The notes beneath the pieces are model-generated. The model saw only the letters and a program-made list of their open reading frames with translations, was not told where the DNA came from and ran no database searches. The position numbers and the translations under genes were made by a program. Below, piece by piece: positions 3,484-51,360 of a stretch of DNA of 64,000 nucleotides. The stretch lies in the NCBI RefSeq assembly GCF_053078305.1, contig NZ_CP166879.1. One strand, written 5' to 3'. Within the stretch, counting starts at the first letter, position 1, and every line of letters begins with the position of its first letter.

Positions 3484-3729
3484 GTGAGTCTTATTGAAGA
3501 TTGGTCTTCCGCCGATATAAAGGCAGCCTTAGAAAAACGCGATACCAATTTGTCACGTTTATCAAGGGAAAATAATTTGCAGCCTAGGACTTTGGGTAAT
3601 GCTTTGCGAGTTCCCTACCCTAAAGGTGAAAAGATAATTGCTAGGGCTATAGGTGTAGAGCCACAGGTTATTTGGCCTACTAGATATGAACGACGTGCGC
3701 GGAGGAAATATGTGGGTTGCAATGACTGA
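3484..3729 (+). CDS. ner: Ner-like DNA-binding regulator
   Basis: 81 aa ORF resembling recalled Mu Ner (…LSRLSR…TLGNAL…PKGEKIIA…EPQVIWPTRY), first rightward gene. Confidence 0.8.
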   Translation: MSLIEDWSSADIKAALEKRDTNLSRLSRENNLQPRTLGNALRVPYPKGEKIIARAIGVEPQVIWPTRYERRARRKYVGCND

Positions 3730-5794
3730 ATTGATTTCATTCAGTGACCTACCTAGTTCTTTGGCAGGTCTGCACAAAAAAGCAAAGAGGGAAGCGTGGA
3801 AAACGCGGCTAAAACCAGGGGTAAAAGGGAAAGTTTTAGAGTGTGAAATAGGAGCTTTGCCTTTAACTGTTCAGCAGGCAGTACGCGAACGCCATGCCCT
3901 GCAACTGATGACGCAAAAAGCCGATGAATCACCGGCTCCGGTGGTGACAAAGGCCAGACGCTCACCTGCCGTGGTTGATGCGGTGGAGGCATATCGCGGA
4001 TCACCCCAACTGATGGTCGAACGCCTCAATGCCCTGACTGAAAATCAGCGCCAGGTGGCTGATGCACGAATCGCGATCGTCAGCGAAGTTCTGAAAGTCG
4101 CGCAACAACCTGGTTTCAGCTGTGCGAAGGCTATCCGGTTTATCGTTGACAACCTGGCACGTTCGCAGTTGGACGAGCGCATTGTGGCAATGGTTGAGAC
4201 GGCGAACGCCAAAAAGGGAAACAGCCGCGCGTTAAGTGAAATCACGCTGAAACGCTGGATTGCGGCCTTTAACAAGGCGCAGAACGCCGCTGAACGCCTG
4301 CTTTTACTGGCACCGGGTAAGCGCCAGGAAATAAAAGCCGAAGATATTAACTGGCTGCCCGAATTTCTGGCGCAGTATCGCCAGTCAAACGGCCGACCAA
4401 TGACCGAGGCTTACGAGGATTTTGTCGCTGAATGGCAGCACCGGCACGCCGATGAGCCTTATATGCTCGATATCATGCCGTCTTATGACACCATTCGCCG
4501 CGCAATGAAGAAACTGCCGGAAGTGGTGAAACAAAAAGGCCGGGTGACCGGCAGTGAATACCGCCAGCTTGAGGGATTCACGCGCCGCGACTGGTCAAAA
4601 ATGCCGGTGAATTATGTCTGGATTGGTGACGGTCACGGCATGAAGCTGAAATGCGCACACCCGGTTCACGGTCGGCCATTTGCACCGGAAGTGACCTTTG
4701 TTATCGACGGTGGCACGCGCTTTGTGGTGGGCTGGAGCCTTGACCTGGCTGAAAATGTTTTCGCCGTAGCCGGTGCCATACAGCACGGCATTCGCCATCA
4801 CGGCAAACCGTTTCTGTATTACTCGGATAACGGCTCCGGGGAAACCGCCGACATCCTGGATAAGGAGGTTGTGGGGATACTGCCGCGACTGGGGATTAAT
4901 CACCCGACCGGGATTGCCGGTAATCCGCAGGGACGAGGCATTATCGAACGGCTTAACCGCACATTACCGATGCGCATAGCCCGTAAATACCGCACCTATT
5001 TCGGGAAAGGTGCAGATCGCGAGACGTTACGCAAAACCAACCGCGATTTACGCTCGGCATTTACTGCCCTGCAACAGGGCAAACGGCTGAACGCCCGGCA
5101 GCAGTCAGCGATGCGTGATTTACCGTCCTGGTCTGAACTGATTGATGCCATTCGTGACGGTGTTGAGTGGTACAACAACCGGCCGCACGATGAATTACCG
5201 GTGAAGCCGAACGGCAAGCATTACAGCCCGGCGGAGTTCAGAAAAAAACGCCTGGCGGAAGAGGACACGGAAATTGAATGGCTGTCCGATGTTGAGCTGC
5301 GGGATATGTTCCGGCCGATGGTGGAACGCCCTGTAAGACGCTGTGAAATACGCTGGCTGAATAATATTTACTACGCGCCCGAGCTGCGTGACGAGCATGG
5401 TCGTAAGGTGCTTATCAGCTATGACATTCATGATGCCGAACGAATTACCGTACGTCGCCTGGATGGCAGCGTGATTTGCGAGGCGGTATGGGACGGTAAT
5501 AAACGCGAAGCCTTCCCGGTTAGCGCGGAATACTACAAACAGCAGCAACGCCTTAAAGGCATGCGTAAACGCGCAGAGGAAAAAATCCGTGATGCCGAGG
5601 ATGAGGTTGTCAACGTGCTGGAGCACAAGCCGCAGGAGCCCTGGCTGGAAAACATATACCGCCCTGTGGGTAATACGGTGACCGTTCAGCAACCGGTCGC
5701 TGACGATGAACCTGATGAAGAATACGAGCGTAATTTCCAGCGGGGATTGCAGTTGCTGGAAGCGAAATTAAAAGAAAATGACCCGCTGGCCTGA
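3710..5794 (+). CDS. Mu-type DDE transposase A
   Basis: ~700 aa ORF with repressor-like N-terminal DNA-binding domain; GGAGG at 3701-3705 favours the ATG at 3710 over the in-frame ATG at 3686. Confidence 0.85.
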   Translation: MWVAMTELISFSDLPSSLAGLHKKAKREAWKTRLKPGVKGKVLECEIGALPLTVQQAVRERHALQLMTQKADESPAPVVTKARRSPAVVDAVEAYRGSPQLMVERLNALTENQRQVADARIAIVSEVLKVAQQPGFSCAKAIRFIVDNLARSQLDERIVAMVETANAKKGNSRALSEITLKRWIAAFNKAQNAAERLLLLAPGKRQEIKAEDINWLPEFLAQYRQSNGRPMTEAYEDFVAEWQHRHADEPYMLDIMPSYDTIRRAMKKLPEVVKQKGRVTGSEYRQLEGFTRRDWSKMPVNYVWIGDGHGMKLKCAHPVHGRPFAPEVTFVIDGGTRFVVGWSLDLAENVFAVAGAIQHGIRHHGKPFLYYSDNGSGETADILDKEVVGILPRLGINHPTGIAGNPQGRGIIERLNRTLPMRIARKYRTYFGKGADRETLRKTNRDLRSAFTALQQGKRLNARQQSAMRDLPSWSELIDAIRDGVEWYNNRPHDELPVKPNGKHYSPAEFRKKRLAEEDTEIEWLSDVELRDMFRPMVERPVRRCEIRWLNNIYYAPELRDEHGRKVLISYDIHDAERITVRRLDGSVICEAVWDGNKREAFPVSAEYYKQQQRLKGMRKRAEEKIRDAEDEVVNVLEHKPQEPWLENIYRPVGNTVTVQQPVADDEPDEEYERNFQRGLQLLEAKLKENDPLA

Positions 5795-14206: not shown

Positions 14207-14434
14207 ATGGATGATTCAGATCGTGCTCAGGCTGTGATGGAGCGGGGATCAGAACGCGCCCTTTGTAACCGGCTGACACGTAAGCGCCGGGCAGTGGATG
14301 CTCCGGGCAGACGTGTCTGCGCAGACTGTGGCGGAGAGATCCCCGCCGCACGTCTTGTTGCTGTGCCGGATGCCATCCGTTGTGTGAACTGCCAGAACAT
14401 CATGGAGGCCCGTCATGTGGGTCAGCATCGTTAA
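14207..14434 (+). CDS. TraR/DksA-family C4 zinc-finger protein
   Basis: CADCGGEIPAARL…AIRCVNCQ motif; start taken at the ATG at 14207 with a purine-rich SD. Confidence 0.6.
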   Translation: MDDSDRAQAVMERGSERALCNRLTRKRRAVDAPGRRVCADCGGEIPAARLVAVPDAIRCVNCQNIMEARHVGQHR

Positions 14435-14723
14435 AGATTATGTTGTGCCGATCCTTTCGGCGACGGCAACCGCTGGCGGGATATTCATGGCGCTGATGCG
14501 CAAAACGTTTGTCCCCCGCGAGGCCTTTGAAAAACTCTCCGACCGCGTTGAGAAGGTGGAAACCCGCCTGTCGTCACTGCCGACAGAAGCCGAGGTCAAC
14601 CGTCTGAATGTGGAAATCGTGACCCTGCGGGGTGAACTGAAAACCACGAACGCCACGCTCCGCTCTGTCTCCTATCAGAACGAACTGCTGCTGGAGCAGG
14701 CTGTAAGGAAAAAAACGCAATGA
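14415..14723 (+). CDS. hypothetical membrane protein
   Basis: 102 aa, N-terminal hydrophobic segment, coiled-coil-like C-terminus. Confidence 0.45.
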   Translation: MWVSIVKDYVVPILSATATAGGIFMALMRKTFVPREAFEKLSDRVEKVETRLSSLPTEAEVNRLNVEIVTLRGELKTTNATLRSVSYQNELLLEQAVRKKTQ

Positions 14724-15010
14724 GTGATTTCATTACTGAAGATCAGCGTCTGGTCATTCTGCGGTCGCTGGCAGATTACAACGGTGAACTGGGTGAATCC
14801 GTGCTCCAGGACTGTCTGGATGATTACGGCCACCGCGTGTCCCGCGACACCGTTCACACCCACATAGCCTGGCTTGCCGAGCAGGGACTGGTGCGCAAAC
14901 GCGTTCTGATTAACGGTTATTTCATCGCGGAACTGACCGGTCGTGGGCAGGATGTGGCGGAAGGCCGGGCCTGCGTTCCGGGTGTGAAGAAACCACGCGC
15001 AAGGGGGTAA
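14720..15010 (+). CDS. hypothetical protein (possible winged-helix)
   Basis: 96 aa ORF, start overlaps previous stop. Confidence 0.4.
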   Translation: MSDFITEDQRLVILRSLADYNGELGESVLQDCLDDYGHRVSRDTVHTHIAWLAEQGLVRKRVLINGYFIAELTGRGQDVAEGRACVPGVKKPRARG

Positions 15011-15012
15011 CG

Positions 15013-15594
15013 ATGGACAAGCCGACGCGTGGTCGTGTACGCAAGGTGGATTTGCTCCCCGACAGCATCCGTAAGCCGCTGCTGGAAATGCTGCGTGAAA
15101 AACGTCTGACGCAGGTCCAGATCCGCGAGGAAATCAACCGTCTGATCCGTGAGGCGGGCCTGCCGGAAGAGCAGCAGCTTTCACCGGCGGCCATCAGCCG
15201 GGAAGCCTCCCGTAATGAGCTGATTGCCCGTAACCTGCGTGATTTACGCGAGCAGACAAAAGCCATGATGGCCGAACTGGGGGACAAGCCAACCGGTGAA
15301 ACCACAGCGCTGATTCTGGAAATGTCCCGCGCCCTGATGTACCGCCGCCTGCGTGCCGCGACCGAATCTCTGAACAGCGACAGCGACGTGGATATGCGCC
15401 TCATCAAAGACATCCTCCTGTCAGCACAGCGTGCGGAAAGTGCCGCCGAGCGCAGCATTAAGCGTGAAAAAGAAATCCGGGCCGCATTTGCTGAAGAGAT
15501 GGCAAACGCGGTCACCGACGAGCTGCGCGGCGTGGATGGCATGAGCGAGCAGATAGAATTTCGTATCAGGCAGATGCTGCTGGGTAAAGCGTAG
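15013..15594 (+). CDS. putative terminase small subunit (Mu gp27-like)
   Basis: 193 aa basic/helical protein directly upstream of the large terminase. Confidence 0.6.
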   Translation: MDKPTRGRVRKVDLLPDSIRKPLLEMLREKRLTQVQIREEINRLIREAGLPEEQQLSPAAISREASRNELIARNLRDLREQTKAMMAELGDKPTGETTALILEMSRALMYRRLRAATESLNSDSDVDMRLIKDILLSAQRAESAAERSIKREKEIRAAFAEEMANAVTDELRGVDGMSEQIEFRIRQMLLGKA

Positions 15595-15604
15595 GAGGTG
15601 AATC

Positions 15605-15853
15605 ATGGCAACAGATAACCGCTCACTGATGATCTGTGCCCATCAGAAGGCATTCAGTCTTGCAACACAGTTACCTCCTGAAACCATAAAAGTGTGTCGT
15701 GAGTTGACTGAACTCTGCATTGCCGGGGAAATCTCCCTGAAACAACTGCATTCGCTGCTGGCAGAGGCTGTCACTGATGAATTGAGCAGCGTGGACGTGA
15801 TGACTGAAGAGCTTGAGTCCCGAATCAGGGGCATTCTGACAGGTAAAGCATGA
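15605..15853 (+). CDS. hypothetical protein, paralog of the small-terminase C-terminus
   Basis: 82 aa; C-terminus AVTDELSSVDVMTEELESRIRGILTGKA parallels AVTDELRGVDGMSEQIEFRIRQMLLGKA of the preceding gene. Confidence 0.4.
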   Translation: MATDNRSLMICAHQKAFSLATQLPPETIKVCRELTELCIAGEISLKQLHSLLAEAVTDELSSVDVMTEELESRIRGILTGKA

Positions 15854-17517
15854 TGAGCAAAGCCAAAGAAACGTCTCCTTCACTGATGCAAATGACGCCT
15901 CCCCGCAAAATTGATCTGGCCGGTGAAAAAGCCCTGCTGGGCGTGGATGTGCCGGACAGCCTTGATTTACCCGGTGATATGCCGGTGTTTCTGGATTATC
16001 AGGCCCGCTGGTTTGAGGATGAAAGTCAGGTCTGCATCGCGGAAAAATCCCGACGCACCGGGCTGACCTGGGCGGAAGCCGGGCGTAACGTCATTACCGC
16101 CGCAAAGCCTAAGCGTCGTGGTGGCCGTAATGTGTTTTATGTGGGGTCAAAGCAGGAGATGGCGCTGGAATATATTTCTGCCTGCGCCCTGTTCTCCCGT
16201 GCCTTTAACCAGCTGGCAGATGCTGATGTGTATGAGCAGACCTTCTGGGATCGGAATAAAAAAGAAGAAATTCTGACCTACATGATCCGCTTTCCGAACA
16301 GTGGATTCAAAATTCAGGCACTGTCTTCCCGTCCGTCAAACCTGCGCGGCCTTCAGGGGGATGTGGTGATTGATGAAGCCGCGTTCCACGAGTCACTGGA
16401 TGAGCTTCTCAAGGCGGCAATGGCGCTCACCATGTGGGGCGCGCGCGTGCGTATTATCTCCACGCATAACGGCGTCGATAATCTGTTTAATCAGTACATT
16501 CAGGAAGCCCGCGAGGGGCGCAAGGATTACAGCGTCCACCGCATAACCCTGGATGATGCCATTGCGGACGGGCTGTACCGTCGTATCTGTTATGTCACCG
16601 GCCGCGAATGGTCACCGGAAAGCGAGCAGAAGTGGCGTGATGATCTCTACAAAAACGCCCCGACCCGTGAGGATGCCGACGAGGAATACGGCTGTATCCC
16701 GAAAAAATCCGGCGGTGCCTATATTCCTCACGCGCTTATTGAAATGGCGATGCTCCGCGACATCCCGATTCTGACGTTTGAAGCCCCGGACGACTTCATC
16801 AGCCGTGCCGCATGGCTGCGTGAATCGGAGGTTTTAACCTGGTGTGAAGAACATTTAAAACCGCTTTTAGAGGCGTTAAATCCCCGTTCCCGCTTCAGCT
16901 TCGGGGAAGACTTTGCCCGCACCGGTGACCTCTCCTGCTTTGTGCTGCTGGAAATCACTGAATCCCTGGCAAAACGCGAGGTGTTTCGCGTGGAGCTGCG
17001 CAACCTGCCGTATGCCCAGCAGGAGCAGGTGATGATGTACATCCTGACCCGCGTTCCGGCGCTGGTCGGTGCGGCGTTCGACGCCACCGGTAACGGCGGC
17101 TATCTGGCCGAAGCCGCGCTGCTGGCCTTTGGCCCGGACATCATCGACTGCGTGATGTTATCGCCGAAGTGGTACGGCGAGTGGATGCCAAAACTGAAGG
17201 CCGAGTTTGAGGATCAGAATATCCTCGTCGCCCGCCATCAGACCACGCTTGATGATTTGCGCCATGTGAAGGTGGTGAACGGTATCCCGCAAATCGACAA
17301 GGGGCGTACGAAGGACCAGAACGCAACGGCTGTGAACGCCCGCCGCCATGGCGATTTTGCCGTGGCGCTCTGTATGGCAAACCGGGCGTCGTACATGGAG
17401 GGCTTCATCCTGGATGAATCAGCCTGTCAGGCGCTGCCGGAGCGGTCGCGGGCCATGGAGGGCGGTTATCGTGATGACGATGAGGCATATCATGAATTTG
17501 ATCGGGGGTGCTGGTAG
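15850..17517 (+). CDS. terminase large subunit
   Basis: 555 aa ORF at the Mu gp28 position. Confidence 0.8.
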   Translation: MMSKAKETSPSLMQMTPPRKIDLAGEKALLGVDVPDSLDLPGDMPVFLDYQARWFEDESQVCIAEKSRRTGLTWAEAGRNVITAAKPKRRGGRNVFYVGSKQEMALEYISACALFSRAFNQLADADVYEQTFWDRNKKEEILTYMIRFPNSGFKIQALSSRPSNLRGLQGDVVIDEAAFHESLDELLKAAMALTMWGARVRIISTHNGVDNLFNQYIQEAREGRKDYSVHRITLDDAIADGLYRRICYVTGREWSPESEQKWRDDLYKNAPTREDADEEYGCIPKKSGGAYIPHALIEMAMLRDIPILTFEAPDDFISRAAWLRESEVLTWCEEHLKPLLEALNPRSRFSFGEDFARTGDLSCFVLLEITESLAKREVFRVELRNLPYAQQEQVMMYILTRVPALVGAAFDATGNGGYLAEAALLAFGPDIIDCVMLSPKWYGEWMPKLKAEFEDQNILVARHQTTLDDLRHVKVVNGIPQIDKGRTKDQNATAVNARRHGDFAVALCMANRASYMEGFILDESACQALPERSRAMEGGYRDDDEAYHEFDRGCW

Positions 17518-36603: not shown

Positions 36604-37164
36604 ATGCTGATTGGCTATATACGCGTATCAACAAATGACCAGAACACAGGTTTACAAAGAAATGCGCTGGAATGTGCAGGATGTAAGCTGATTTTTGAAG
36701 ATAAAATGAGCGGAAAAACAACGCAGCGGCCGGGACTGAAGCGGGCACTGAAGAAACTAAAACCCGGTGACACGCTGATGGTCTGGAAACTGGACAGGCT
36801 GGGGCGCAGTATGCGCCACCTTGTTGCGCTGACAGATGAATTACAGCAACAGGGGATAAATTTTCGTAGTCTTACTGACAACATTGATACGTCAACCCCC
36901 ATGGGGCGCTTCTTTTTTCACATAATGGGTGCGCTGGCAGAAATGGAGCGTGAATTGATTGTCGAACGGACACGGGCTGGTCTTGCAGCTGCCCGTGAAA
37001 GGGGACGAACCGGTGGCAGACCCCGTCGTCTCACGCAGGAACAATACGAGCAGGTCGGGCGTTTACTGGCCGGGGGTGTCAGCCGAAGACAGGTGGCACT
37101 TATTTTTGATATCGGCCTTTCAACCCTTTATCGTTATTATCCTGCAAGCATTTCGGAAAAATAA
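36604..37164 (+). CDS. gin: Gin/Hin/Pin-family serine DNA invertase
   Basis: 186 aa starting MLIGYIRVSTNDQ… with resolvase catalytic domain and C-terminal HTH, adjacent to the inverted repeats. Confidence 0.9.
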   Translation: MLIGYIRVSTNDQNTGLQRNALECAGCKLIFEDKMSGKTTQRPGLKRALKKLKPGDTLMVWKLDRLGRSMRHLVALTDELQQQGINFRSLTDNIDTSTPMGRFFFHIMGALAEMERELIVERTRAGLAAARERGRTGGRPRRLTQEQYEQVGRLLAGGVSRRQVALIFDIGLSTLYRYYPASISEK

Positions 37165-37254: not shown

Positions 37255-39312
37255 ATGAATATTATGACGTCCAAATGGGTTCAACTATCATCAATGCCCG
37301 GAAACTTTACCGTTAAAGTTTCCGGTGGTACAGCGGCATTTCTTGAGGCTCCTTTTCCTCCGGCTGAAACGAAAGGAGGAATGACATTTGCTGACTGTCT
37401 CATCAGTTTTAATACACAGGATTGCCTGTGGGTAAGGCCAGTATCCGGTGATCCGAACGTGGAAATTACCGGAGCGGGTATTGGTGCTGTCATTCCGTTA
37501 AGTGCTGATGTTGCCGGTACTACTGAACCGTCAGACTGGGATAATGCTGAAACACATACCCGTCCGGCAGGAAATGAAACGGCTTCCAGCTCCCCTTCCT
37601 GGTATTACGTGATTGTTATAGCCGGTCAGTCCAATGCTTCATCTTATGGTGAAGGGTTGCCCCTGCCGGATTCTTATGATCGTCCTGATCCACGTATTAT
37701 GCAGCTGGCACGCAGGAATACACAAACCCCCGGAGGTATTCCCTGCAAATACAATGAAATCATTCCAGCAGATCACTGCCTTCATGATGTTCAGAATATG
37801 AGTCTGCTGAACCATCCAAAAGCAGACCTGAAAAAAGGGCAGTATGGTTGTGTGGGTCAGGGACTTCATATTGCGAAAAAAGTATTACCGGTGATTCCTG
37901 CTGATGCCGGGATTTTACTGGTTCCCTGTGCCCGTGGCGGCTCTGCTTTTACAACCGGCGCAGTTGGCTCATTCGATCCGGCAAGTGGTGCAGCCGAGGC
38001 GTCACTACGCTGGGGAGTGGATACCCCACTGTATCAGGATCTTGTCAGTCGAACGAAAGCGGCACTTGAGGCGAATCCAAAGAATGTGCTGTTATCTGTC
38101 GTATGGATTCAGGGGGAAGGAGACCTTAAAGCGACCCCGGCCCAGCATGGTGCCCAGTTTACTGCGATGGTGAAAAAATTCCGTGCGGATCTTGGTGCTT
38201 TCTCCGGTCAGTGTATTGGTGGTTCATCAGACAGTGTGCCGTGGTTATGTGGTGACACAACCTATGACTGGAAAGAGAAGAACCCGGCGGCATATGAAAC
38301 CATTTATAGCGGATATAAAAACCGGGCTTCCGAGAACATTCACTTTGTTCCACTGATGCACGATGAGTTCGGTAATAAAACCGCGACCAACCTGCCGGAG
38401 CACGACCCGGATATCGCTTCTGCCGGGTATTATGGTGCGGAATCACGGGGAGATGGCAACTGGACAACAGCATCCAGGGCAACCCATTTTAGCTCCTGGG
38501 CGCGCCGTTTTCTGGTCTCAGATCGTTTTGCATCAGCAATTCTTAAATATGCAGGTCTGACCTCTGCATTTATTGCCGGTGTGGCCCCTGATGGTGAAGC
38601 CCTGCCTCAGCCCGCGCCGGGTGGAAAACCGGAAGCTCCGACAGGTAGTCAGCCAGGAAGCAGTGAGTCCCCCCAGCCGACATCCCCGTCACTCCGTACG
38701 CTGCTTTCACTTAAAGCATCAGCAGGGGAAGCCCCGGCTCAGGGATGGAAAATTACAGATGGTACAATCCAGCTGACGGACGAAGGTAAAGCGCTGACCG
38801 TATCCAAACAAAGCGGAAAAACCTGGTCACTTACCCATGCGACCAGTGCTGCCGGAGAGCTGTTGCAGCATGGTGGTCAGTTGACCTGTAAATTCCGTCT
38901 GTCAGGTGAAGTAAAAGAAGGCCAGTTTGCTCTGGGTATTTACCTCCACACCGATACGGTCCCGGAAGGTGTAACCATGAGTGGTACAGGCACACCGTTC
39001 CTGATGGCGTATTATCTCCAGACAACAGGCGGCCAGTTAAATCTGATGCACCATAAAACAGGGGGGAATACGAAACTGGGATCATTTGGAGCCTACAATA
39101 ACCAGTGGCATACACTTGTCCTGAAGTTTACGGCGGGAAGTGCCCAGGTAACGCCTGTGCTGGATGGCACTCCGGGCCAGGCATTCCAGATGGTGAAAGA
39201 TGCACTTTCCCCTGCCAAAGATACGCTGACACTGACAGATGTCACCAAAGGGGCAACTTATGGCGTGTCTTTTGAGAGCGTTGTCCTTGAGGTTAATACC
39301 CCTGCGGCATAA
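37255..39312 (+). CDS. NanS-like SGNH esterase (putative 9-O-acetyl sialic acid esterase) with C-terminal extension
   Basis: 685 aa; residues ~115-430 closely resemble recalled E. coli NanS/YjhS (YYVIVIAGQSNASSYGEGLPLPDS…DTPLYQDLVSRTKAAL…CGDTT…DRF); ~250 aa extra C-terminal domain. Confidence 0.7.
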   Translation: MNIMTSKWVQLSSMPGNFTVKVSGGTAAFLEAPFPPAETKGGMTFADCLISFNTQDCLWVRPVSGDPNVEITGAGIGAVIPLSADVAGTTEPSDWDNAETHTRPAGNETASSSPSWYYVIVIAGQSNASSYGEGLPLPDSYDRPDPRIMQLARRNTQTPGGIPCKYNEIIPADHCLHDVQNMSLLNHPKADLKKGQYGCVGQGLHIAKKVLPVIPADAGILLVPCARGGSAFTTGAVGSFDPASGAAEASLRWGVDTPLYQDLVSRTKAALEANPKNVLLSVVWIQGEGDLKATPAQHGAQFTAMVKKFRADLGAFSGQCIGGSSDSVPWLCGDTTYDWKEKNPAAYETIYSGYKNRASENIHFVPLMHDEFGNKTATNLPEHDPDIASAGYYGAESRGDGNWTTASRATHFSSWARRFLVSDRFASAILKYAGLTSAFIAGVAPDGEALPQPAPGGKPEAPTGSQPGSSESPQPTSPSLRTLLSLKASAGEAPAQGWKITDGTIQLTDEGKALTVSKQSGKTWSLTHATSAAGELLQHGGQLTCKFRLSGEVKEGQFALGIYLHTDTVPEGVTMSGTGTPFLMAYYLQTTGGQLNLMHHKTGGNTKLGSFGAYNNQWHTLVLKFTAGSAQVTPVLDGTPGQAFQMVKDALSPAKDTLTLTDVTKGATYGVSFESVVLEVNTPAA

Positions 39313-40760: not shown

Positions 40761-40961
40761 ATGTATCGAAACATACGGTGCCGACACTGCAATAAGCTAC
40801 TGGCACGGGCCAGTTTCAGTTATCTGGAAGTAAAATGTCCGCGCTGTAAAACCCTCAATCAAATCACATCTCCGAGCGCCACAGAGCACCCCACATACAC
40901 AAGGAAATCCTGTCGTGGGGAACAGAAAGCAAGTCACATCCCGTATCATCAGCACGCCTGA
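40761..40961 (+). CDS. com: Com-like zinc-finger translational activator
   Basis: 66 aa from the ATG at 40761: [14 protein letters not shown]…[10 protein letters not shown], two CxxC pairs as in Mu Com; 3' end overlaps the mom start. Confidence 0.7.
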
Positions 40962-41652
40962 ACTTATTCGCTATAACGACAATATCGTTGGTTATGGTTC
41001 CCGTGAGTTGCGGGTTGAGACAATAAGTTGCTGGCTGGCCAGACTGGTTATCGTCAATAAACATTACAGCCACCGTTTCGTAAATAACTCCTACCTTCAT
41101 CTGGGCATATTTTCAGAACGGGAACTTGTTGGCGTAATGCAATGGGGTTACGCCCTTAACCCAAACAGTGGTGCACGCGTCGTAACGGGTACGCAGAACC
41201 GAGAATATATGGAGCTGAACCGGCTATGGATGCATGACTGTATGCCGAGAAACTCCGAATCAAGGGCAATCAGTTACGCGCTCAAGCTAATCAGGCAGCT
41301 TTATCCGCAGGTACAGTGGGTTCAGTCGTTTGCAGATGAGCGTTGTGGCTGTCTTGGTGTCGTGTATCAGGCAAGCAATTTTGATTATGTAGGCAGCCAT
41401 GAAACAATATTCTATGAACTTGATGGCGAGTGGTATCACGAGATTTGCAGGAATGCCATTAAACGAGGCGGACAACGAGGTGAACATCTGAGGGCTAATA
41501 TCGACAGAGCCAGTGTGCATAAGTTCCGACAGTTTCGTTACATCCGGTTTCTGAACAAGAGGGCCAGAAAACGCCTCAACACAAAGCTATTCAAAGTCCA
41601 GCCTTACCCAAAACCACAAACAGTTAAAACTGGTTTGAAAGAGAGTGAATGA
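40915..41652 (+). CDS. mom: Mom-like DNA modification protein
   Basis: 245 aa ORF (GTG start) overlapping com and located at the right phage end, the Mu com/mom arrangement; function by position and architecture. Confidence 0.6.
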
Positions 41653-41710: not shown

Positions 41711-41764
41711 TTGCGTATCGGCGTTTTTCAGCGGTATCAAATGAAATGCAAATCGGTATCAAAA
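41711..41764. repeat. right-end transposase-binding repeats (attR-like)
   Basis: CGTATCGG (41714-41721), GCGGTATCAAA (41731-41741), TCGGTATCAAA (41753-41763), inverted relative to the left-end copies. Confidence 0.6.
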
Positions 41765-43030
41765 AAATCGCCGCGCTATACCCACCAGACTCATTCCTGC
41801 CCAGCCTACAGGACTCAGGTTACCGTAAAGAATGACCGCCAATATTGCCAGTCCACCCCATTGCAAAAAAGTATCAGGCCGGTAAAACGAAGACTTTTTA
41901 CGCGGCAGATAAAATTTCTGCATCCGTAAAAATGCCCTGCGTAAGACTCTGTTGCGTCTCCCCGTAAGAACGACCTTATCGCCTTTACGAAATAACGCTT
42001 CCAGTAATAACTGCTCTGCGGGCAGTAATACCTCATTATTTCTGGTCGCGCCTTCATTAACACGAATCAGGATTTGCTGGTTCTTATCATACTGATCTTC
42101 CAGATGAATTTTTCCTTTCACAATCAGATTTACGATATCGGCACAAAACCCTTTATCGTCGTAAACCAGCTTCGCATCGAGACGTAACATGCCGGGCGTG
42201 TAATCTGGCGGAATGACATCGGTTTCAATCACATCTACCGGCGTAAATTGCGGCCTGCGCTTCCAGAGATATAACCATCCACAAACCAGGAATAGACACG
42301 GAAACCAAATTAACAACGATGACGTGGAGGGTAAAAGAAGATGGCTGAAAATATTCGTCGTTTGTGGAGCCGGGGCATTGCTAAGTAACGAGTGAGGCCA
42401 ACGGTAGAGGACCGTGAAATCTTCACGATAAAACGGATCGCTGGATTCAATTCTTCCGTCCTCAAGGATGCGGCCATTTCGATATGTGTCGCCCTCTTCT
42501 CCAGTAAAGAGATCGATTTCGCTAAATGGATTACCCGCGATATCAGGGAACTTGAGTGAAAATCGGGTCTTATAGATTTCAAACGGCCAGTGGTTACCAG
42601 TCACGTTCCAGATTAACAGATCTGAATCTCCCTCACGCAGGAAAGCATTTTTAACCTGATAATGAATTTGATAATGATAGTCGCCTTGGGGCAAGAAACG
42701 TTGTTTATCGCCCACGACAATACTCATTAACCCGATATGCCAGTCAAGATGCCAGGGTTCAGGAATACCATCACGGGTTACGCCAACAATATGATAGTTC
42801 AGCAGTGCTGCGTCCCCATCAGGCTGCATCCAGAGTCGTGGTAAATCACGATAAAATCCGTGCTTAATCTGCTGATTTCGCGCCTGAAAATGAATGTTCT
42901 CTTTGATGTCGAGCACCCCATCCGGTTGCAGAGTGGCTTCAGAAGGGATCTCCGTGTTTTCTGCATAACTTAGAGATGATACAAACAGCCCTGCTATCAA
43001 CAGCAAAATGCAGCGAAACTTCCCTGCCAT
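41759..43030 (-). pseudogene. yciQ: yciQ 5' fragment (N-terminal part), truncated by the prophage; stop codon formed at the junction
   Basis: 423 aa ORF with signal peptide whose TGA (41759-41761) lies inside the phage terminal motif. Confidence 0.75.
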
Positions 43031-44829: not shown

Positions 44830-46392
44830 ATGCAAACACAAAAACCGACTCTCGAACTGCTAACCTGCGAAGGCGCTTATCGCGACAATCCCACCGCGCT
44901 TTTTCACCAATTGTGTGGGGATCGTCCGGCAACGCTGCTGCTGGAATCCGCAGATATCGACAGCAAAGATGATTTAAAAAGCCTGCTGCTGGTAGACAGT
45001 GCGCTGCGCATTACAGCTTTAGGTGACACTGTCACAATCCAGTCCCTTTCCGGCAACGGCGAAGCCCTGCTGACACTACTGGATAACGCCCTGCCTGCGG
45101 GTGTGGAAAATGAACAATTACCAAACTGCCGTGTGCTGCGCTTCCCCCCTGTTAGTCCACTGCTGGATGAAGACGCTCGCTTATGCTCCCTTTCGGTTTT
45201 TGACGCTTTCCGCTTATTGCAGAATCTGTTGAATGTACCGAAGGAAGAACGAGAAGCCATGTTTTTCGGCGGCCTGTTCTCTTATGACCTTGTGGCGGGG
45301 TTTGAAGATTTACCGCAACTGTCAGCGGAAAATAACTGCCCTGATTTCTGTTTTTATCTCGCTGAAACTCTGATGGTGATTGACCATCAGAAAAAAAGCA
45401 CCCGCATTCAGGCCAGCCTGTTTGCTCCGAATGAAGAAGAAAAACAACGTCTCACTGCTCGCCTGAACGATCTTCGCCAGCAACTGACCGAAGCCGCGCC
45501 GCCGCTGCCGGTGGTTTCCGTGCCGCATATGCGTTGTGAATGTAATCAAAGTGATGACGAGTTCGGTGGCGTAGTGCGTTTGTTGCAAAAAGCGATTCGC
45601 GCCGGAGAAATTTTCCAGGTCGTGCCATCTCGCCGTTTCTCGCTGCCCTGCCCGTCACCGCTGGCGGCCTATTACGTGCTGAAAAAGAGTAATCCCAGCC
45701 CGTACATGTTTTTTATGCAGGATAATGATTTCACCCTGTTTGGCGCGTCGCCGGAAAGTTCGCTCAAGTATGACGCCACCAGCCGCCAGATTGAGATCTA
45801 CCCGATTGCCGGAACACGTCCACGCGGTCGTCGTGCCGATGGTTCACTGGACAGAGACCTCGACAGCCGCATCGAACTGGAAATGCGTACCGATCATAAA
45901 GAGCTTTCTGAACATCTGATGCTGGTGGATCTCGCCCGTAATGATCTGGCACGCATTTGCACCCCCGGCAGCCGCTACGTCGCCGATCTTACCAAAGTTG
46001 ACCGTTACTCTTACGTGATGCACCTGGTCTCCCGCGTGGTCGGTGAGCTGCGCCACGATCTCGACGCCCTACACGCTTACCGCGCCTGTATGAATATGGG
46101 TACGTTAAGCGGTGCGCCGAAAGCACGCGCTATGCAGTTAATTGCCGAGGCTGAAGGTCGTCGCCGCGGCAGCTACGGCGGCGCGGTAGGTTATTTCACC
46201 GCGCATGGCGATCTCGACACCTGCATTGTGATCCGCTCGGCGCTGGTGGAAAACGGTATCGCCACCGTGCAAGCCGGTGCTGGCGTAGTCCTTGATTCTG
46301 TTCCGCAGTCGGAAGCCGACGAAACCCGTAATAAAGCCCGCGCTGTACTGCGCGCTATTGCCACCGCGCATCATGCACAGGAGACTTTCTGA
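44830..46392 (+). CDS. trpE: anthranilate synthase component I
   Basis: 520 aa, matches recalled TrpE. Confidence 0.95.
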
Positions 46393-47987
46393 TGGCTGAC
46401 ATTCTGCTGCTCGATAATATCGACTCTTTTACGTACAACCTGGCAGATCAGTTGCGCAGCAATGGGCATAACGTGGTGATTTACCGCAACCATATTCCGG
46501 CGCAAACCTTAATTGAACGCCTGGCGACGATGAGCAATCCGGTGCTGATGCTTTCTCCGGGGCCAGGTGTGCCGAGTGAAGCCGGTTGTATGCCAGAACT
46601 CCTCACCCGCTTGCGCGGTAAGCTGCCGATTATTGGCATTTGCCTCGGTCATCAGGCGATTGTCGAAGCCTACGGGGGGTATGTCGGTCAGGCGGGCGAA
46701 ATTCTTCACGGTAAAGCCTCCAGCATTGAACATGACGGTCAGGCGATGTTTGCCGGATTAACAAACCCATTGCCGGTGGCGCGTTATCACTCGCTGGTTG
46801 GCAGTAATATTCCGGCCGGTTTAACCATCAACGCCCATTTTAATGGCATGGTGATGGCGGTGCGTCACGATGCAGATCGCGTTTGCGGATTCCAGTTCCA
46901 CCCGGAATCCATTCTCACCACCCAGGGCGCTCGCCTGCTGGAACAAACGCTGGCCTGGGCGCAGCAGAAACTAGAGCCAACCAACACGCTGCAACCGATT
47001 CTGGAAAAACTGTATCAGGCGCAGACCCTTAGCCAGCAGGAAAGTCATCAGCTATTTTCAGCGGTGGTACGTGGCGAACTGAAACCGGAACAACTGGCGG
47101 CGGCGCTGGTGAGCATGAAAATTCGCGGCGAGCACCCGAACGAGATCGCCGGAGCAGCAACCGCGCTACTGGAAAACGCAGCGCCGTTCCCGCGCCCGGA
47201 TTATCTGTTTGCTGATATCGTCGGTACTGGCGGTGACGGCAGCAACAGTATCAATATTTCTACCGCCAGTGCGTTTGTCGCCGCGGCCTGTGGGCTGAAA
47301 GTGGCGAAACACGGCAACCGTAGCGTCTCCAGTAAATCTGGTTCGTCCGATCTGCTGGCGGCGTTCGGTATTAATCTTGATATGAACGCCGATAAATCGC
47401 GCCAGGCGCTGGATGAGTTAGGCGTATGTTTCCTCTTTGCGCCGAAATATCACACCGGATTCCGCCACGCGATGCCGGTTCGCCAGCAACTGAAAACCCG
47501 CACCCTGTTCAATGTGCTGGGGCCATTGATTAACCCGGCGCATCCGCCGCTGGCGTTAATTGGTGTTTATAGTCCGGAACTGGTGCTGCCGATTGCCGAA
47601 ACCTTGCGCGTGCTGGGGTATCAACGCGCGGCGGTGGTGCACAGCGGCGGGATGGATGAAGTTTCATTACACGCGCCGACAATCGTTGCCGAGCTGCACG
47701 ATGGCGAAATTAAGAGCTATCAGCTGACCGCAGAAGACTTTGGCCTGACACCCTACCACCAGGAGCAACTGGCAGGCGGAACACCGGAAGAAAACCGTGA
47801 CATTTTAACACGCTTGTTACAAGGTAAAGGCGACGCCGCCCATGAAGCAGCCGTCGCGGCGAACGTCGCCATGTTAATGCGCTTGCATGGCCATGAAGAT
47901 CTGCAAGCCAATGCGCAAACCGTTCTTGAGGTACTGCGCAGTGGTTCCGCTTACGACAGAGTCACCGCACTGGCGGCTCGAGGGTAA
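46392..47987 (+). CDS. trpD: anthranilate synthase component II / anthranilate phosphoribosyltransferase
   Basis: 531 aa bifunctional protein, start overlaps the trpE stop. Confidence 0.95.
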
Positions 47988-49349
47988 ATGATGCAAACCG
48001 TTTTAGCGAAAATCGTCGCAGACAAGGCGATTTGGGTAGAAGCCCGCAAACAGCAGCAACCGCTGGCCAGTTTTCAGAATGAGGTTCAGCCGAGCACGCG
48101 ACATTTTTATGATGCGCTACAGGGTGCACGCACGGCGTTTATTCTGGAGTGCAAGAAAGCGTCGCCGTCAAAAGGCGTGATCCGTGATGATTTCGATCCG
48201 GCACGCATTGCAACCGTCTACAGAAATTACGCTTCGGCAATTTCGGTGCTGACTGACGAGAAATATTTCCAGGGAAGCTTTGATTTTCTCCCCATCGTCA
48301 GCCAAATCGCGCCACAGCCGATTTTGTGTAAAGACTTCATTATCGACCCTTACCAGATCTATCTGGCGCGCTATTACCAGGCTGATGCCTGTTTATTAAT
48401 GCTTTCAGTACTGGATGACGAACAATATCGCCAGCTTGCCGCCGTCGCCCACAGTCTGGAGATGGGTGTGCTGACCGAAGTCAGTAATGAAGAGGAACTG
48501 GAGCGCGCCATTGCATTAGGGGCAAAGGTCGTTGGCATCAACAACCGCGATCTGCGTGATTTGTCGATTGATCTCAACCGTACCCGCGAGCTTGCGCCGA
48601 AACTGGGGCACAACGTGACGGTAATCAGCGAATCCGGAATCAATACTTACGCTCAGGTGCGCGAGTTAAGCCACTTCGCTAACGGTTTTCTGATTGGTTC
48701 GGCGTTGATGGCCCATGACGATTTGCACGCCGCCGTGCGCCGGGTATTGCTGGGTGAGAATAAAGTATGTGGCCTGACGCGTGGGCAAGATGCTAAAGCA
48801 GCGTATGACGCGGGCGCGATTTACGGTGGGTTGATTTTTGTTGCGACATCACCGCGTTGCGTCAACGTTGAACAGGCGCAGGAAGTGATGGCTGCGGCAC
48901 CGTTGCAGTATGTTGGCGTGTTCCGCAATCACGATATTGCCGAGGTGGTGGACAAAGCTAAGGTGTTATCGCTGGCGGCAGTGCAACTGCATGGTAATGA
49001 AGATCAGCTGTATATCGATACGCTGCGTGAAGCTCTGCCAGCACACGTTGCCATCTGGAAAGCATTAAGCGTCGGTGAAACCCTGCCCGCCCGCGAGCTT
49101 CAGCACGTTGATAAATATGTTTTAGACAACGGCCAGGGTGGAAGCGGGCAACGTTTCGACTGGTCACTATTAAATGGTCAATCGCTTGGCAACGTTCTGC
49201 TGGCGGGGGGCTTAGGCGCAGATAACTGCGTGGAAGCGGCACAAACCGGCTGCGCCGGACTTGATTTTAATTCTGCTGTAGAGTCGCAACCGGGCATCAA
49301 AGACGCACGTCTTTTGGCCTCGGTTTTCCAGACGCTGCGCGCATATTAA
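47988..49349 (+). CDS. trpC: indole-3-glycerol phosphate synthase / phosphoribosylanthranilate isomerase
   Basis: 453 aa starting [21 protein letters not shown]…. Confidence 0.95.
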
Positions 49350-49360
49350 GGAAAGGAACA

Positions 49361-50554
49361 ATGACAACATTACTTAACCCCTATTTTGGTGAGTTTGGCG
49401 GCATGTACGTGCCACAAATCCTGATGCCTGCTCTGCGCCAGCTGGAAGAAGCTTTTGTCAGCGCGCAAAAAGATCCTGAATTTCAAGCCCAGTTCAACGA
49501 CCTACTGAAAAACTATGCCGGGCGTCCAACCGCACTGACCAAATGCCAGAACATTACGGCTGGGACGAAAACCACGCTGTATCTGAAGCGCGAAGATTTG
49601 CTGCACGGCGGCGCGCATAAAACTAACCAGGTGCTCGGTCAGGCTTTACTGGCGAAGCGGATGGGTAAAACCGAAATCATCGCCGAAACCGGGGCCGGTC
49701 AGCATGGCGTGGCGTCGGCCCTTGCCAGCGCCCTGCTCGGCCTGAAATGCCGTATTTATATGGGGGCCAAAGACGTTGAACGCCAGTCGCCTAACGTTTT
49801 TCGTATGCGTTTAATGGGTGCGGAAGTGATCCCGGTGCATAGCGGTTCCGCGACGCTGAAAGATGCCTGTAACGAGGCGCTGCGCGACTGGTCCGGCAGT
49901 TATGAAACCGCGCACTATATGCTGGGCACCGCAGCTGGCCCACATCCTTATCCGACCATTGTCCGTGAGTTTCAGCGGATGATTGGCGAAGAAACCAAAG
50001 CACAGATTCTGGAAAGAGAAGGTCGCCTGCCGGATGCCGTTATCGCCTGTGTTGGCGGCGGTTCGAATGCCATCGGCATGTTTGCAGATTTCATCAACGA
50101 AACCGACGTCGGCCTGATTGGTGTGGAGCCTGGCGGTCACGGTATCGAAACTGGCGAGCACGGCGCACCGCTAAAACATGGTCGCGTGGGCATTTATTTC
50201 GGTATGAAAGCGCCAATGATGCAAACCGAAGACGGGCAGATTGAAGAATCTTACTCCATCTCCGCCGGGCTGGATTTCCCGTCCGTCGGCCCGCAACACG
50301 CGTATCTTAACAGCACTGGACGCGCTGATTACGTGTCAATTACCGATGATGAAGCCCTTGAAGCCTTCAAAACGCTCTGCCTGCACGAAGGGATCATCCC
50401 GGCGCTGGAATCCTCCCACGCCCTGGCCCATGCGCTGAAAATGATGCGCGAAAACCCGGAAAAAGAGCAGCTACTGGTGGTTAACCTTTCCGGTCGCGGC
50501 GATAAAGACATCTTCACCGTTCACGATATTTTGAAAGCACGAGGGGAAATCTGA
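49361..50554 (+). CDS. trpB: tryptophan synthase beta chain
   Basis: 397 aa, matches recalled TrpB. Confidence 0.95.
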
Positions 50555-51360
50555 TGGAACGCTACGAATCTCTGTTTGCCCAGTTGAAGGAGCGCAAAGA
50601 AGGCGCATTCGTTCCTTTCGTCACGCTCGGGGATCCGGGCATTGAGCAGTCCTTGAAAATTATCGATACGCTAATTGAAGCCGGTGCTGACGCGCTGGAG
50701 TTAGGTATCCCCTTCTCCGACCCACTGGCGGATGGCCCGACCATTCAAAACGCCACTCTGCGCGCCTTTGCGGCAGGTGTGACTCCGGCACAATGTTTTG
50801 AAATGCTGGCACTGATTCGCCAGAAACACCCGACCATTCCCATTGGCCTGTTGATGTATGCCAATCTGGTGTTTAACAAAGGCATTGATGAGTTTTATGC
50901 CCAGTGCGAGAAAGTCGGCGTCGATTCGGTGCTGGTTGCCGATGTGCCAGTTGAAGAGTCCGCGCCCTTCCGCCAGGCCGCGTTGCGTCATAATGTCGCA
51001 CCTATCTTCATCTGCCCGCCAAATGCCGATGACGACCTGCTGCGCCAGATAGCCTCTTACGGTCGTGGTTACACCTATTTGCTGTCACGAGCGGGCGTGA
51101 CCGGCGCAGAAAACCGCGCCGCGTTACCACTCAATCATCTGGTTGCGAAGCTGAAAGAGTACAACGCTGCACCTCCATTGCAGGGATTTGGTATTTCCGC
51201 CCCGGATCAGGTAAAAGCAGCGATTGATGCAGGAGCTGCGGGCGCGATTTCTGGTTCGGCCATTGTTAAAATCATCGAGCAACATATTAATGAGCCAGAG
51301 AAAATGCTGGCGGCACTGAAAGCTTTTGTACAACCGATGAAAGCGGCGACGCGCAGTTAA
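50554..51360 (+). CDS. trpA: tryptophan synthase alpha chain
   Basis: 268 aa starting [28 protein letters not shown]…. Confidence 0.95.

Follow-up and report, generated by a model that had tools for sequence, protein, structure and literature searches.

Related Systems and the ORF82 Locus

Small proteins that act on terminase interactions are encoded by phage satellites, among them Ppi of the Staphylococcus aureus pathogenicity islands (SaPI) and Rpp of the phage-inducible chromosomal islands (PICI), which target the small terminase of the helper phage. We analyzed a 64,000-nucleotide stretch of an Escherichia coli chromosome (contig NZ_CP166879.1, assembly GCF_053078305.1; hereafter the window), in which a Mu-like prophage carries an 82-codon open reading frame (ORF), here named ORF82, between the genes for its gp27-family small terminase and its large terminase (TerL). 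We know of no sequence relation between ORF82 and Ppi or Rpp; these proteins would be its nearest functional analogy if ORF82 binds TerL, with the difference that ORF82 belongs to the late operon of the phage itself and would work by means of a tail copied from the small terminase. ORF82 proved to be chimeric, with an N-terminal domain (X) unrelated to gp27 joined in frame to a degenerate copy of the gp27 C-terminal tail. We favor, with a probability of roughly 55%, the reading that it is an optional accessory gene, built by recombination at a mosaic hot spot of the terminase genes, which relays translation into TerL. ORF82 is a product of ordinary phage mosaicism and not a new packaging system. 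A literature search found no description of it.

The C-terminal region of the small terminase binds the N-terminal part of TerL in phages lambda (gpNu1) and P22 (gp3), and in P22 the contact involves residues 140-162 of the small terminase and residues 1-58 of TerL (PMC9611059). The gp27 tail, which co-segregates with TerL type as described below, may be the counterpart of these short TerL-binding segments; there is no sequence relationship, and ORF82 would be a tail without a small-terminase body. To our knowledge, no Mu-type terminase complex has been solved and the contacts between its subunits have not been mapped. With the Mu gp27 family (PF11985, phrog_426), ORF82 shares the homologous C-terminal tail, its predicted helix-loop-helix pattern and the stop/start overlap with TerL; unlike that family, it has neither the N-terminal helix-turn-helix (HTH)-like region nor the long helical core, and its tail is degenerate and weakly constrained. 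Lacking the gp27 body, ORF82 falls outside the gp27/small-terminase family. It does belong to a catalogued family, phrog_30922, which has no function annotation and whose entry does not record the combination of X with a small-terminase tail.

Two further groups bear comparison. Small ORFs consisting of X only occupy the same slot in other prophages (ORF67 in E. coli, 65-aa ORFs in Salmonella); they evolve fast and are homologous to ORF82 residues 1-55, but they end after X and have no small-terminase tail. Phage morons, like ORF82, are optional, small, sporadic, lower in G+C and exchanged between conserved flanking genes. ORF82 differs from a classical moron in that no promoter or terminator of its own was found, and in being threaded into the late operon by putative translational coupling and partly recycled from a neighboring essential gene.

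ORF82 Joins an Unrelated Domain to a Copy of the gp27 Tail

ORF82 runs on the + strand from an ATG at 15605 to a TGA at 15851-15853. A first-pass annotation, made from the sequence alone, had placed an 82-aa ORF here between the terminase genes, in agreement with the start and stop codons and with the family matches, and had claimed that its last ~28 residues parallel those of gp27. Formal alignment bore out this likeness over 28-31 residues in both protein and DNA. Residues 163-193 of gp27 aligned without gaps to residues 52-82 of ORF82 (BLASTP, 19/31 identical, 24/31 positives, E 4e-10), and the corresponding DNA segments, tail A in gp27 and tail B in ORF82, were identical in frame at 62 of 93 bases, a value reached by none of 100,000 codon shuffles (best, 48). 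The gp27 protein also matched phrog_30922, the ORF82-like family, at positions 51-82 (E 6e-8). Upstream of residue 52, neither BLASTP nor hhalign found any resemblance of ORF82 to gp27, and when aligned by hhalign to a 37-sequence gp27 alignment the ORF82 profile was confident only over residues ~55-82. The in-frame junction is at residues 52-55 (LAEA in ORF82, MANA in gp27), where the homology to X and that to the gp27 tail overlap.

The copied tail is degenerate. Four positions that are invariant in its class are altered in ORF82 (R to S, G to V, S to T, L to T), changing the motifs ELRG to ELSS or ELSG, DGMSE to DVMTE and LLGKA to LTGKA. It nevertheless keeps the gp27-type C-terminal position directly before TerL, with an ATGA overlap. 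The AlphaFold2 (AF2) model of ORF82 (predicted local distance difference test score, pLDDT, 71) has helices at residues 4-22, 25-39 and 45-62, followed by a low-confidence loop and a terminal helix, while that of gp27 (pLDDT 73) has an HTH-like N-terminal region, long helices and a terminal helix; both tails are predicted to form the same helix-loop-helix pattern. With Foldseek, the ORF82 model matched nothing in PDB or BFVD with E under 0.8, and the gp27 model nothing in PDB with E under 1, hence no solved small terminase; phmmer of gp27 against PDB sequences returned nothing.

ORF82 matched the phrog_30922 profile from residue 2 to 82 over positions 2-82 of 82 (E 3e-47). No Pfam match was obtained even at E up to 10, and NCBIfam and PADLOC gave sub-threshold noise only (VapB15 with 16 bits for a cutoff of 80; HEC-01B with E 0.03). 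A word-indexed homologue search retrieved close E. coli relatives only, and a profile scan of 1.84 billion representative proteins retrieved four clusters only, with no longer protein containing X.

ORF82 is well equipped for translation (Table 1). Its Shine-Dalgarno sequence, AGGAGGTG, is fully complementary over 8 bases to the 3' end of 16S rRNA, lies 4 nt upstream of the ATG and is overlapped by the gp27 stop codon TAG (15592-15594). This signal is kept across all ORF82, ORF67 and mini-ORF alleles (see below), and the start codon of the ORF82 alleles, at least eight of which are distinct and intact, is always ATG or GTG. At the other end, the geometry of the ATGA shared by the ORF82 stop and the TerL start suggests a translational-coupling junction. 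ORF82 sits in the late operon, and a consensus scan found no sigma-70-like promoter and no terminator in or beside it.

Table 1. Features of the gp27-TerL region in the window and ratios of nonsynonymous to synonymous substitution rates (dN/dS).
Feature	Position	Strand	Basis or remark	dN/dS
gp27-family small terminase gene, 193 aa	15013..15594	+	Pfam PF11985 Phage_Mu_Gp27 and phrog_426	
gp27 body				0.05
Tail A, gp27 codons 163-193 (MANAVTDELRGVDGMSEQIEFRIRQMLLGKA)	15499..15591	+	aligns with ORF82 52-82	0.02
Exchangeable cassette block	15537..15901	+	sole stretch differing from the ORF-less Sp18-type prophage L003	
Shine-Dalgarno AGGAGGTG of ORF82	15593..15600	+	direct sequence reading	
ORF82, chimeric accessory ORF (X domain and small-terminase tail copy)	15605..15853	+	phrog_30922, E 3e-47	0.66
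X domain, codons 1-55, predicted three-helix unit	15605..15769	+	ORF67 homology, AF2	0.83
Tail B, ORF82 codons 52-82 (LAEAVTDELSSVDVMTEELESRIRGILTGKA), degenerate small-terminase tail copy	15758..15850	+	BLASTP against tail A	0.44
ATGA overlap, ORF82 stop TGA/TerL start ATG	15850..15853	+	direct sequence reading	
TerL, large terminase (gp28-like), 555 aa	15850..17517	+	phrog_2, E 8e-43	
TerL from residue 19				0.06
Portal				0.07

The X Domain Occurs Without the Tail in E. coli and Salmonella

A third E. coli allele (locus L004) agrees in gp27, Shine-Dalgarno sequence and start codon but encodes a product of 67 aa (ORF67; P0010), which is 56% identical to ORF82 residues 1-55 (59/55 residues, E 8e-18). 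ORF67 has no tail; a spacer of ~120 nt separates it from a TerL with yet another N-terminus. In Mu-like prophages of Salmonella enterica, a profile search recovered X as 65-aa ORFs forming about 25 clusters (P0012-P0037). They lie in the gp27/TerL slot and are ATGA-coupled to TerL, and none carries the tail. The comparison of the E. coli and Salmonella X sets by hhalign gave E 2e-5 with a probability of 76% over 56 ungapped columns, which suggests homology but falls short of proof. ORF82, ORF67 and the Salmonella ORFs also share the look of their left junction, each starting a few bases after the gp27 stop. The Salmonella X profile did not match the 37-sequence gp27 alignment (hhalign probability 0.9%, E 0.059), and X was assigned to no Pfam, NCBIfam or PADLOC family. 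For one further sequence, P0008, no contig position was established.

ORF82 Lies on an Optional, Exchangeable Cassette

The first-pass annotation had raised the question of whether related Mu-like phages carry this ORF, and the answer is that a minority do. Among 5,426 complete E. coli genomes, about 229 of which contain this prophage family, gp27 directly overlapped TerL in 205 (including prophage Sp18 of strain Sakai), X-domain DNA was present in 24 and a 9-codon mini-ORF in one; Mu itself has no such ORF. The mini-ORF allele was seen in L016 (3583-3615), L025 (~2477-2509) and strain CI5 (NZ_CP011018.1, 4294315-4294400). It is reduced to the Shine-Dalgarno sequence, a start and 9 codons, which read MATDWFSYE or MATDRFSYE and terminate over the TerL start, and looks like an ORF67-type allele from which the ORF was deleted.

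Comparison with the ORF-less prophage L003 (O157:H7 PA20) delimited the cassette. The window was 97-100% identical to L003 over 14412-15491 and 15924-17363, and its backbone is closer to this ORF-less prophage than to other ORF82-bearing prophages. Between these flanks, a 365-bp block (15537-15901) holds 259 bp that are extra relative to L003, and its alignable parts are only 70-79% identical. Because the flanks are nearly identical and the block is divergent, the block must have been swapped by recombination between conserved gp27 and TerL sequence. Its G+C content is ~0.50, compared with 0.58-0.60 around it.

The tails tell a similar story. Tails A and B share their orientation and frame and are offset by 259 bp, and the ORF-less allele is exactly 259 bp shorter than the ORF82-bearing one. 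Over 96 nt, tail A and tail B are identical at 63 positions (66%), and tail B and the single tail of ORF-less alleles at 75. The first half of that single tail is like tail A (44/48 nt), while its last half is closer to tail B (39/48) than to tail A (33/48). The tails are divergent alleles. Had the arrangement arisen by recent deletion or by recent duplication in place, near-identity would be expected in at least one of these comparisons, and none was seen. In particular, recent deletion was rejected as the source of the ORF-less allele, which matches the window at only 70-81% in its tail and TerL N-terminus, against 97-100% in the flanks.

Several other copies of the locus deserve mention. 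In E. coli JE86-ST05 (NZ_AP022815.1), X-domain DNA occurs at three chromosomal places, one of them at 833838-834006, a pattern suggestive of an active ORF82-bearing prophage that has copied itself by transposition. In L008 (371-613), ORF82 is fused at codon 24 to baseplate-region sequence, and in L015 (1256-1435) a 1-nt deletion shifts its frame. The gp27 gene is broken by a premature stop in L025 (~2086) and L046 (~3323). Some of these damaged relatives (L008, L015, L025, L046) are short-read assemblies, in which sequencing or assembly errors are possible.

The gp27/TerL Junction and the gp27 Tail in Mu-Like Phages

We retrieved 80 Mu-like loci with gp27 (33-97% identical). In most of them, gp27 and TerL share 1 or 4 nt at their stop and start codons, and in Mu 7 nt separate the genes without an intervening ORF, a distribution that points to direct gp27-TerL coupling as the ancestral state. 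Exceptional loci carry unrelated small ORFs in the slot: L075 (3576-3767), L079 and L082 (3582-3788), L087 (~3555-3620), L088 (~3555-3635) and L093 (3446-3613). One type, of 63-68 aa, had a below-threshold match to an Acb2/Tad1 hairpin (E 0.045), and several others are very short and hydrophobic. Since varied small ORFs are found in one slot, the gp27/TerL junction is a recurrent insertion site. A second gp27 tail was found only in ORF82 among these junction inserts.

The gp27 tail itself appears to be an exchangeable module that follows the TerL type and not the gp27 body. The gp27 bodies of L053 and L077 are 97% identical, whereas their last 30 residues are 23% and their TerLs 51% identical. 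Conversely, L053 and the window have gp27 bodies that are only 36% identical, with tails 80% and TerLs 68% identical, and L057 shows the same pattern on a different gp27 body. The TerLs that go with this tail class are longer at the N-terminus, by a segment of 35-45 residues that is absent from other TerLs. The loci of this comparison were L053, L057, L077 and L089, in which gp27 ends near 3564-3567 and TerL follows, and positions 15499-15591 and 15850-15990 of the window. Taken with the precedent of lambda and P22, this co-segregation makes the gp27 tail a probable TerL-docking module.

The beginning of TerL is variable as well. Three unrelated N-terminal sequences occur among the E. coli alleles, conservation being regained from PPRKIDL on, and among ORF82 alleles residues 2-18 (15853-15906) are hypervariable, with 6 nonsynonymous and 2 synonymous events.

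ORF82 Is Weakly Constrained

We estimated dN/dS by the Nei-Gojobori method on six ORF82-bearing loci and counted substitution events over 14 loci (Table 1). ORF82 lacks purifying selection comparable to that of the packaging genes (0.66 vs 0.02-0.07). Nonsynonymous and synonymous events numbered 24 and 11 in X and 10 and 6 in the ORF82 tail, as against 21 and 103 in the flanks (Fisher p 1e-8 and 2e-4, respectively). The gp27 protein's own tail is under very strong purifying selection (2 nonsynonymous, 18 synonymous), and constraint on the ORF82 tail is ~20-fold weaker. For ORF82 as a whole, neutrality was not rejected (34 nonsynonymous and 17 synonymous events, expected nonsynonymous fraction 0.76, one-sided p 0.08), and the chance that it stayed open under neutrality was estimated at P 0.24-0.53. 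Two of its three indels are in frame: deletions that preserve the frame fall where the tail begins in two alleles, and one allele is frameshifted (L015). The Salmonella X ORFs had a dN/dS of 0.30, compared with 0.05-0.06 for their flanks, which marks X as a genuine protein-coding family.

A Possible Translational Relay Into TerL

The reading that we favor draws on the chimeric composition of ORF82, its cassette being optional, its late-operon position with a strong Shine-Dalgarno sequence and TerL overlap, and its weak constraint. In this scheme, an X gene lying between gp27 and TerL would have acquired, in frame, the tail of a gp27 allele in which gp27 and TerL were still adjacent. The tail copy would sit where the ancestral gp27 tail sat, keeping both the upstream translation context of TerL and the ATGA overlap, and an in-frame fusion would have been favored because out-of-frame products would uncouple TerL. 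Ribosomes would pass from gp27 through ORF82 to TerL, so that ORF82 would restore the coupling that insertion of X would have broken. The mini-ORF allele, in which only a Shine-Dalgarno sequence, a start and a stop over the TerL start remain, is consistent with such a role. The product would be a small helical X domain with a worn small-terminase tail, and may keep some affinity for TerL through that tail, selection on the tail being weak and the gene dispensable.

Several points weigh against this reading. The dN/dS of the Salmonella X ORFs is clearly below 1, so their product probably does something, and to regard ORF82 as a coupling relay may undervalue it. All full-length ORF82 alleles are open, and 18 tail positions are invariant among eight aligned ORF82 sequences, which could reflect a retained function. 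The ORF67 allele, with TerL ~120 nt downstream, indicates that coupling is not obligatory. The order of events may also have been different, with loss of a tail from X elsewhere in place of X insertion followed by fusion. Finally, the identity of gp27 as a small terminase with a TerL-binding tail is suggested by annotation, co-segregation and the analogy with lambda and P22.

ORF82 might instead be a selected terminase modulator, whose tail docks on the N-terminal region of TerL and brings X to the packaging enzyme. Conceivable roles would then be competition with gp27, the timing or tuning of packaging, and protection of TerL against host sensors, and an arms race rather than decay would explain the fast evolution. 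We hold this to be possible, though distinctly less probable than the relay. The first-pass annotation had likewise suggested, as a possibility, a terminase-interacting or packaging-modulating peptide. In favor of a modulator, the gp27 tails of Mu-like phages vary in step with TerL type and with the N-terminal extension of TerL, and small-terminase tails of lambda and P22 bind the TerL N-terminus (PMC9611059). The perfect Shine-Dalgarno sequence and predicted co-translation with the terminase genes, the openness of all full-length alleles, the invariant run V63-E69, the helix-loop-helix pattern that AF2 predicts for the tail as for that of gp27, and the purifying selection on Salmonella X would all suit a modulator. 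On the other hand, at the same time depth the tail has a dN/dS of 0.44 compared with 0.02 for gp27's own tail, and the residues changed in the ELRG, DGMSE and LLGKA motifs are precisely class-invariant ones. Moreover, in-frame deletions remove tail residues in some alleles, and the tail is absent from ~90% of the related E. coli prophages and from all Salmonella X genes found. The consensus scan found no promoter for expression in lysogens, and neutrality was not rejected.

A related idea, which we consider doubtful, is that ORF82 is a natural mimic of the small-terminase tail that delivers an accessory domain to the N-terminal extension of TerL. Once there, it might adjust the packaging enzyme of the phage that encodes it, act as a competitor of the small terminase or hide TerL from host sensors. 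If true, it would be a phage-encoded terminase modulator within the phage's own late operon, and would directly reveal the part of Mu-type small terminases that is in contact with TerL.

The first-pass annotation had proposed a partial 3' duplication that became a separate small gene. A homologous tail copy within a well-signaled separate ORF was indeed found, but a simple duplication does not account for it, as X is independent of gp27. In its full form, a local tandem duplication would derive all 82 codons from the 3' part of gp27, followed by divergence in place. The distance of 259 bp between tails of the same orientation and frame would fit, as would a collinear but non-significant hhalign placement of X on gp27 residues 121-161 (E 0.059, probability 0.9%). 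Against it, X has no significant similarity to gp27 in BLASTP, Pfam (E up to 10) or hhalign, stand-alone X ORFs without a tail exist in two host species, and no longer protein containing X appeared among 1.84 billion representatives. Furthermore, the tails are 66% identical in DNA in a backbone that is 97-100% identical to ORF-less phages, and the ORF-less tail is a mixture, tail A-like in its first half and tail B-like in its second. With X unrelated to gp27, tail-less X genes and divergent tails, simple tandem duplication is largely refuted, and we regard this origin as improbable.

Least probable of all is that ORF82 is no gene but an untranslated recombination scar, a non-coding RNA or a packaging signal: near-neutral dN/dS, an openness that is not improbable by chance and the frameshifted allele L015 would agree with it, but the perfect, optimally spaced 8-nt Shine-Dalgarno sequence kept in all alleles, the restriction of start codons to ATG or GTG, the predominance of in-frame indels (2/3) and the dN/dS of 0.30 in the homologous Salmonella ORFs all speak for translation. 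An RNA element was rejected, as no Rfam family scored above noise and the predicted fold was no stabler than that of shuffled sequence (z -0.21).

Under the relay reading, ORF82 would be a worked example of an accessory ORF spliced into an essential coupled gene pair, in which reuse of the last 30 codons of the upstream gene means that TerL keeps its translation context. The co-segregation of tail and TerL and the junction as a landing site seem more useful than ORF82 itself. The former offers a hypothesis for Mu-type terminases, namely that the last ~30 gp27 residues travel with TerL and its N-terminal extension; the latter makes the gp27/TerL junction a reasonable place to look for accessory or anti-defense genes. 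An ORF82 protein that binds TerL would serve as a convenient probe of the interface.

The Prophage and Its Neighborhood

The window derives from an E. coli chromosome, its yciC-ompW flank being 99.5% identical to E. coli genomes. The Mu-like prophage spans about 1.7-41.7 kb, with the Mu transposase gene at 3686-5794 and Mom at 40915-41652. The product of the gp27 gene matched PF11985 Phage_Mu_Gp27 over the full-length profile (E 3e-33) and phrog_426, "terminase small subunit" (E 9e-55); its small-terminase assignment rests on Pfam, PHROG and the record annotation. The TerL gene is followed by a Mu-type portal gene, and its product matched the PHROG "terminase large subunit" family with no match in Pfam or NCBIfam, so that its name rests on PHROGs only. 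The Mu homologue of this TerL (Mup28, NC_000929, 12899-14554) is annotated as "putative portal protein," a label that looks outdated.

At the right end of the prophage, between an invertase gene (36604-37164) and Mom, lies a gene (37255-39312) for a 685-aa protein with a SASA sialate-acetylesterase-type domain and DUF6645, which is probably prophage cargo. The prophage (~1700-41700) is flanked by a pseudouridine synthase gene (738-1610) and a DUF2207 membrane-protein gene (41759-43030), and a few kb away, at 44830-51360, lies a candidate trp operon, judged by its ORF sizes. Antisense to gp27, a 206-aa ORF on the - strand (14922-15542) most likely reflects the G+C richness of the coding strand.

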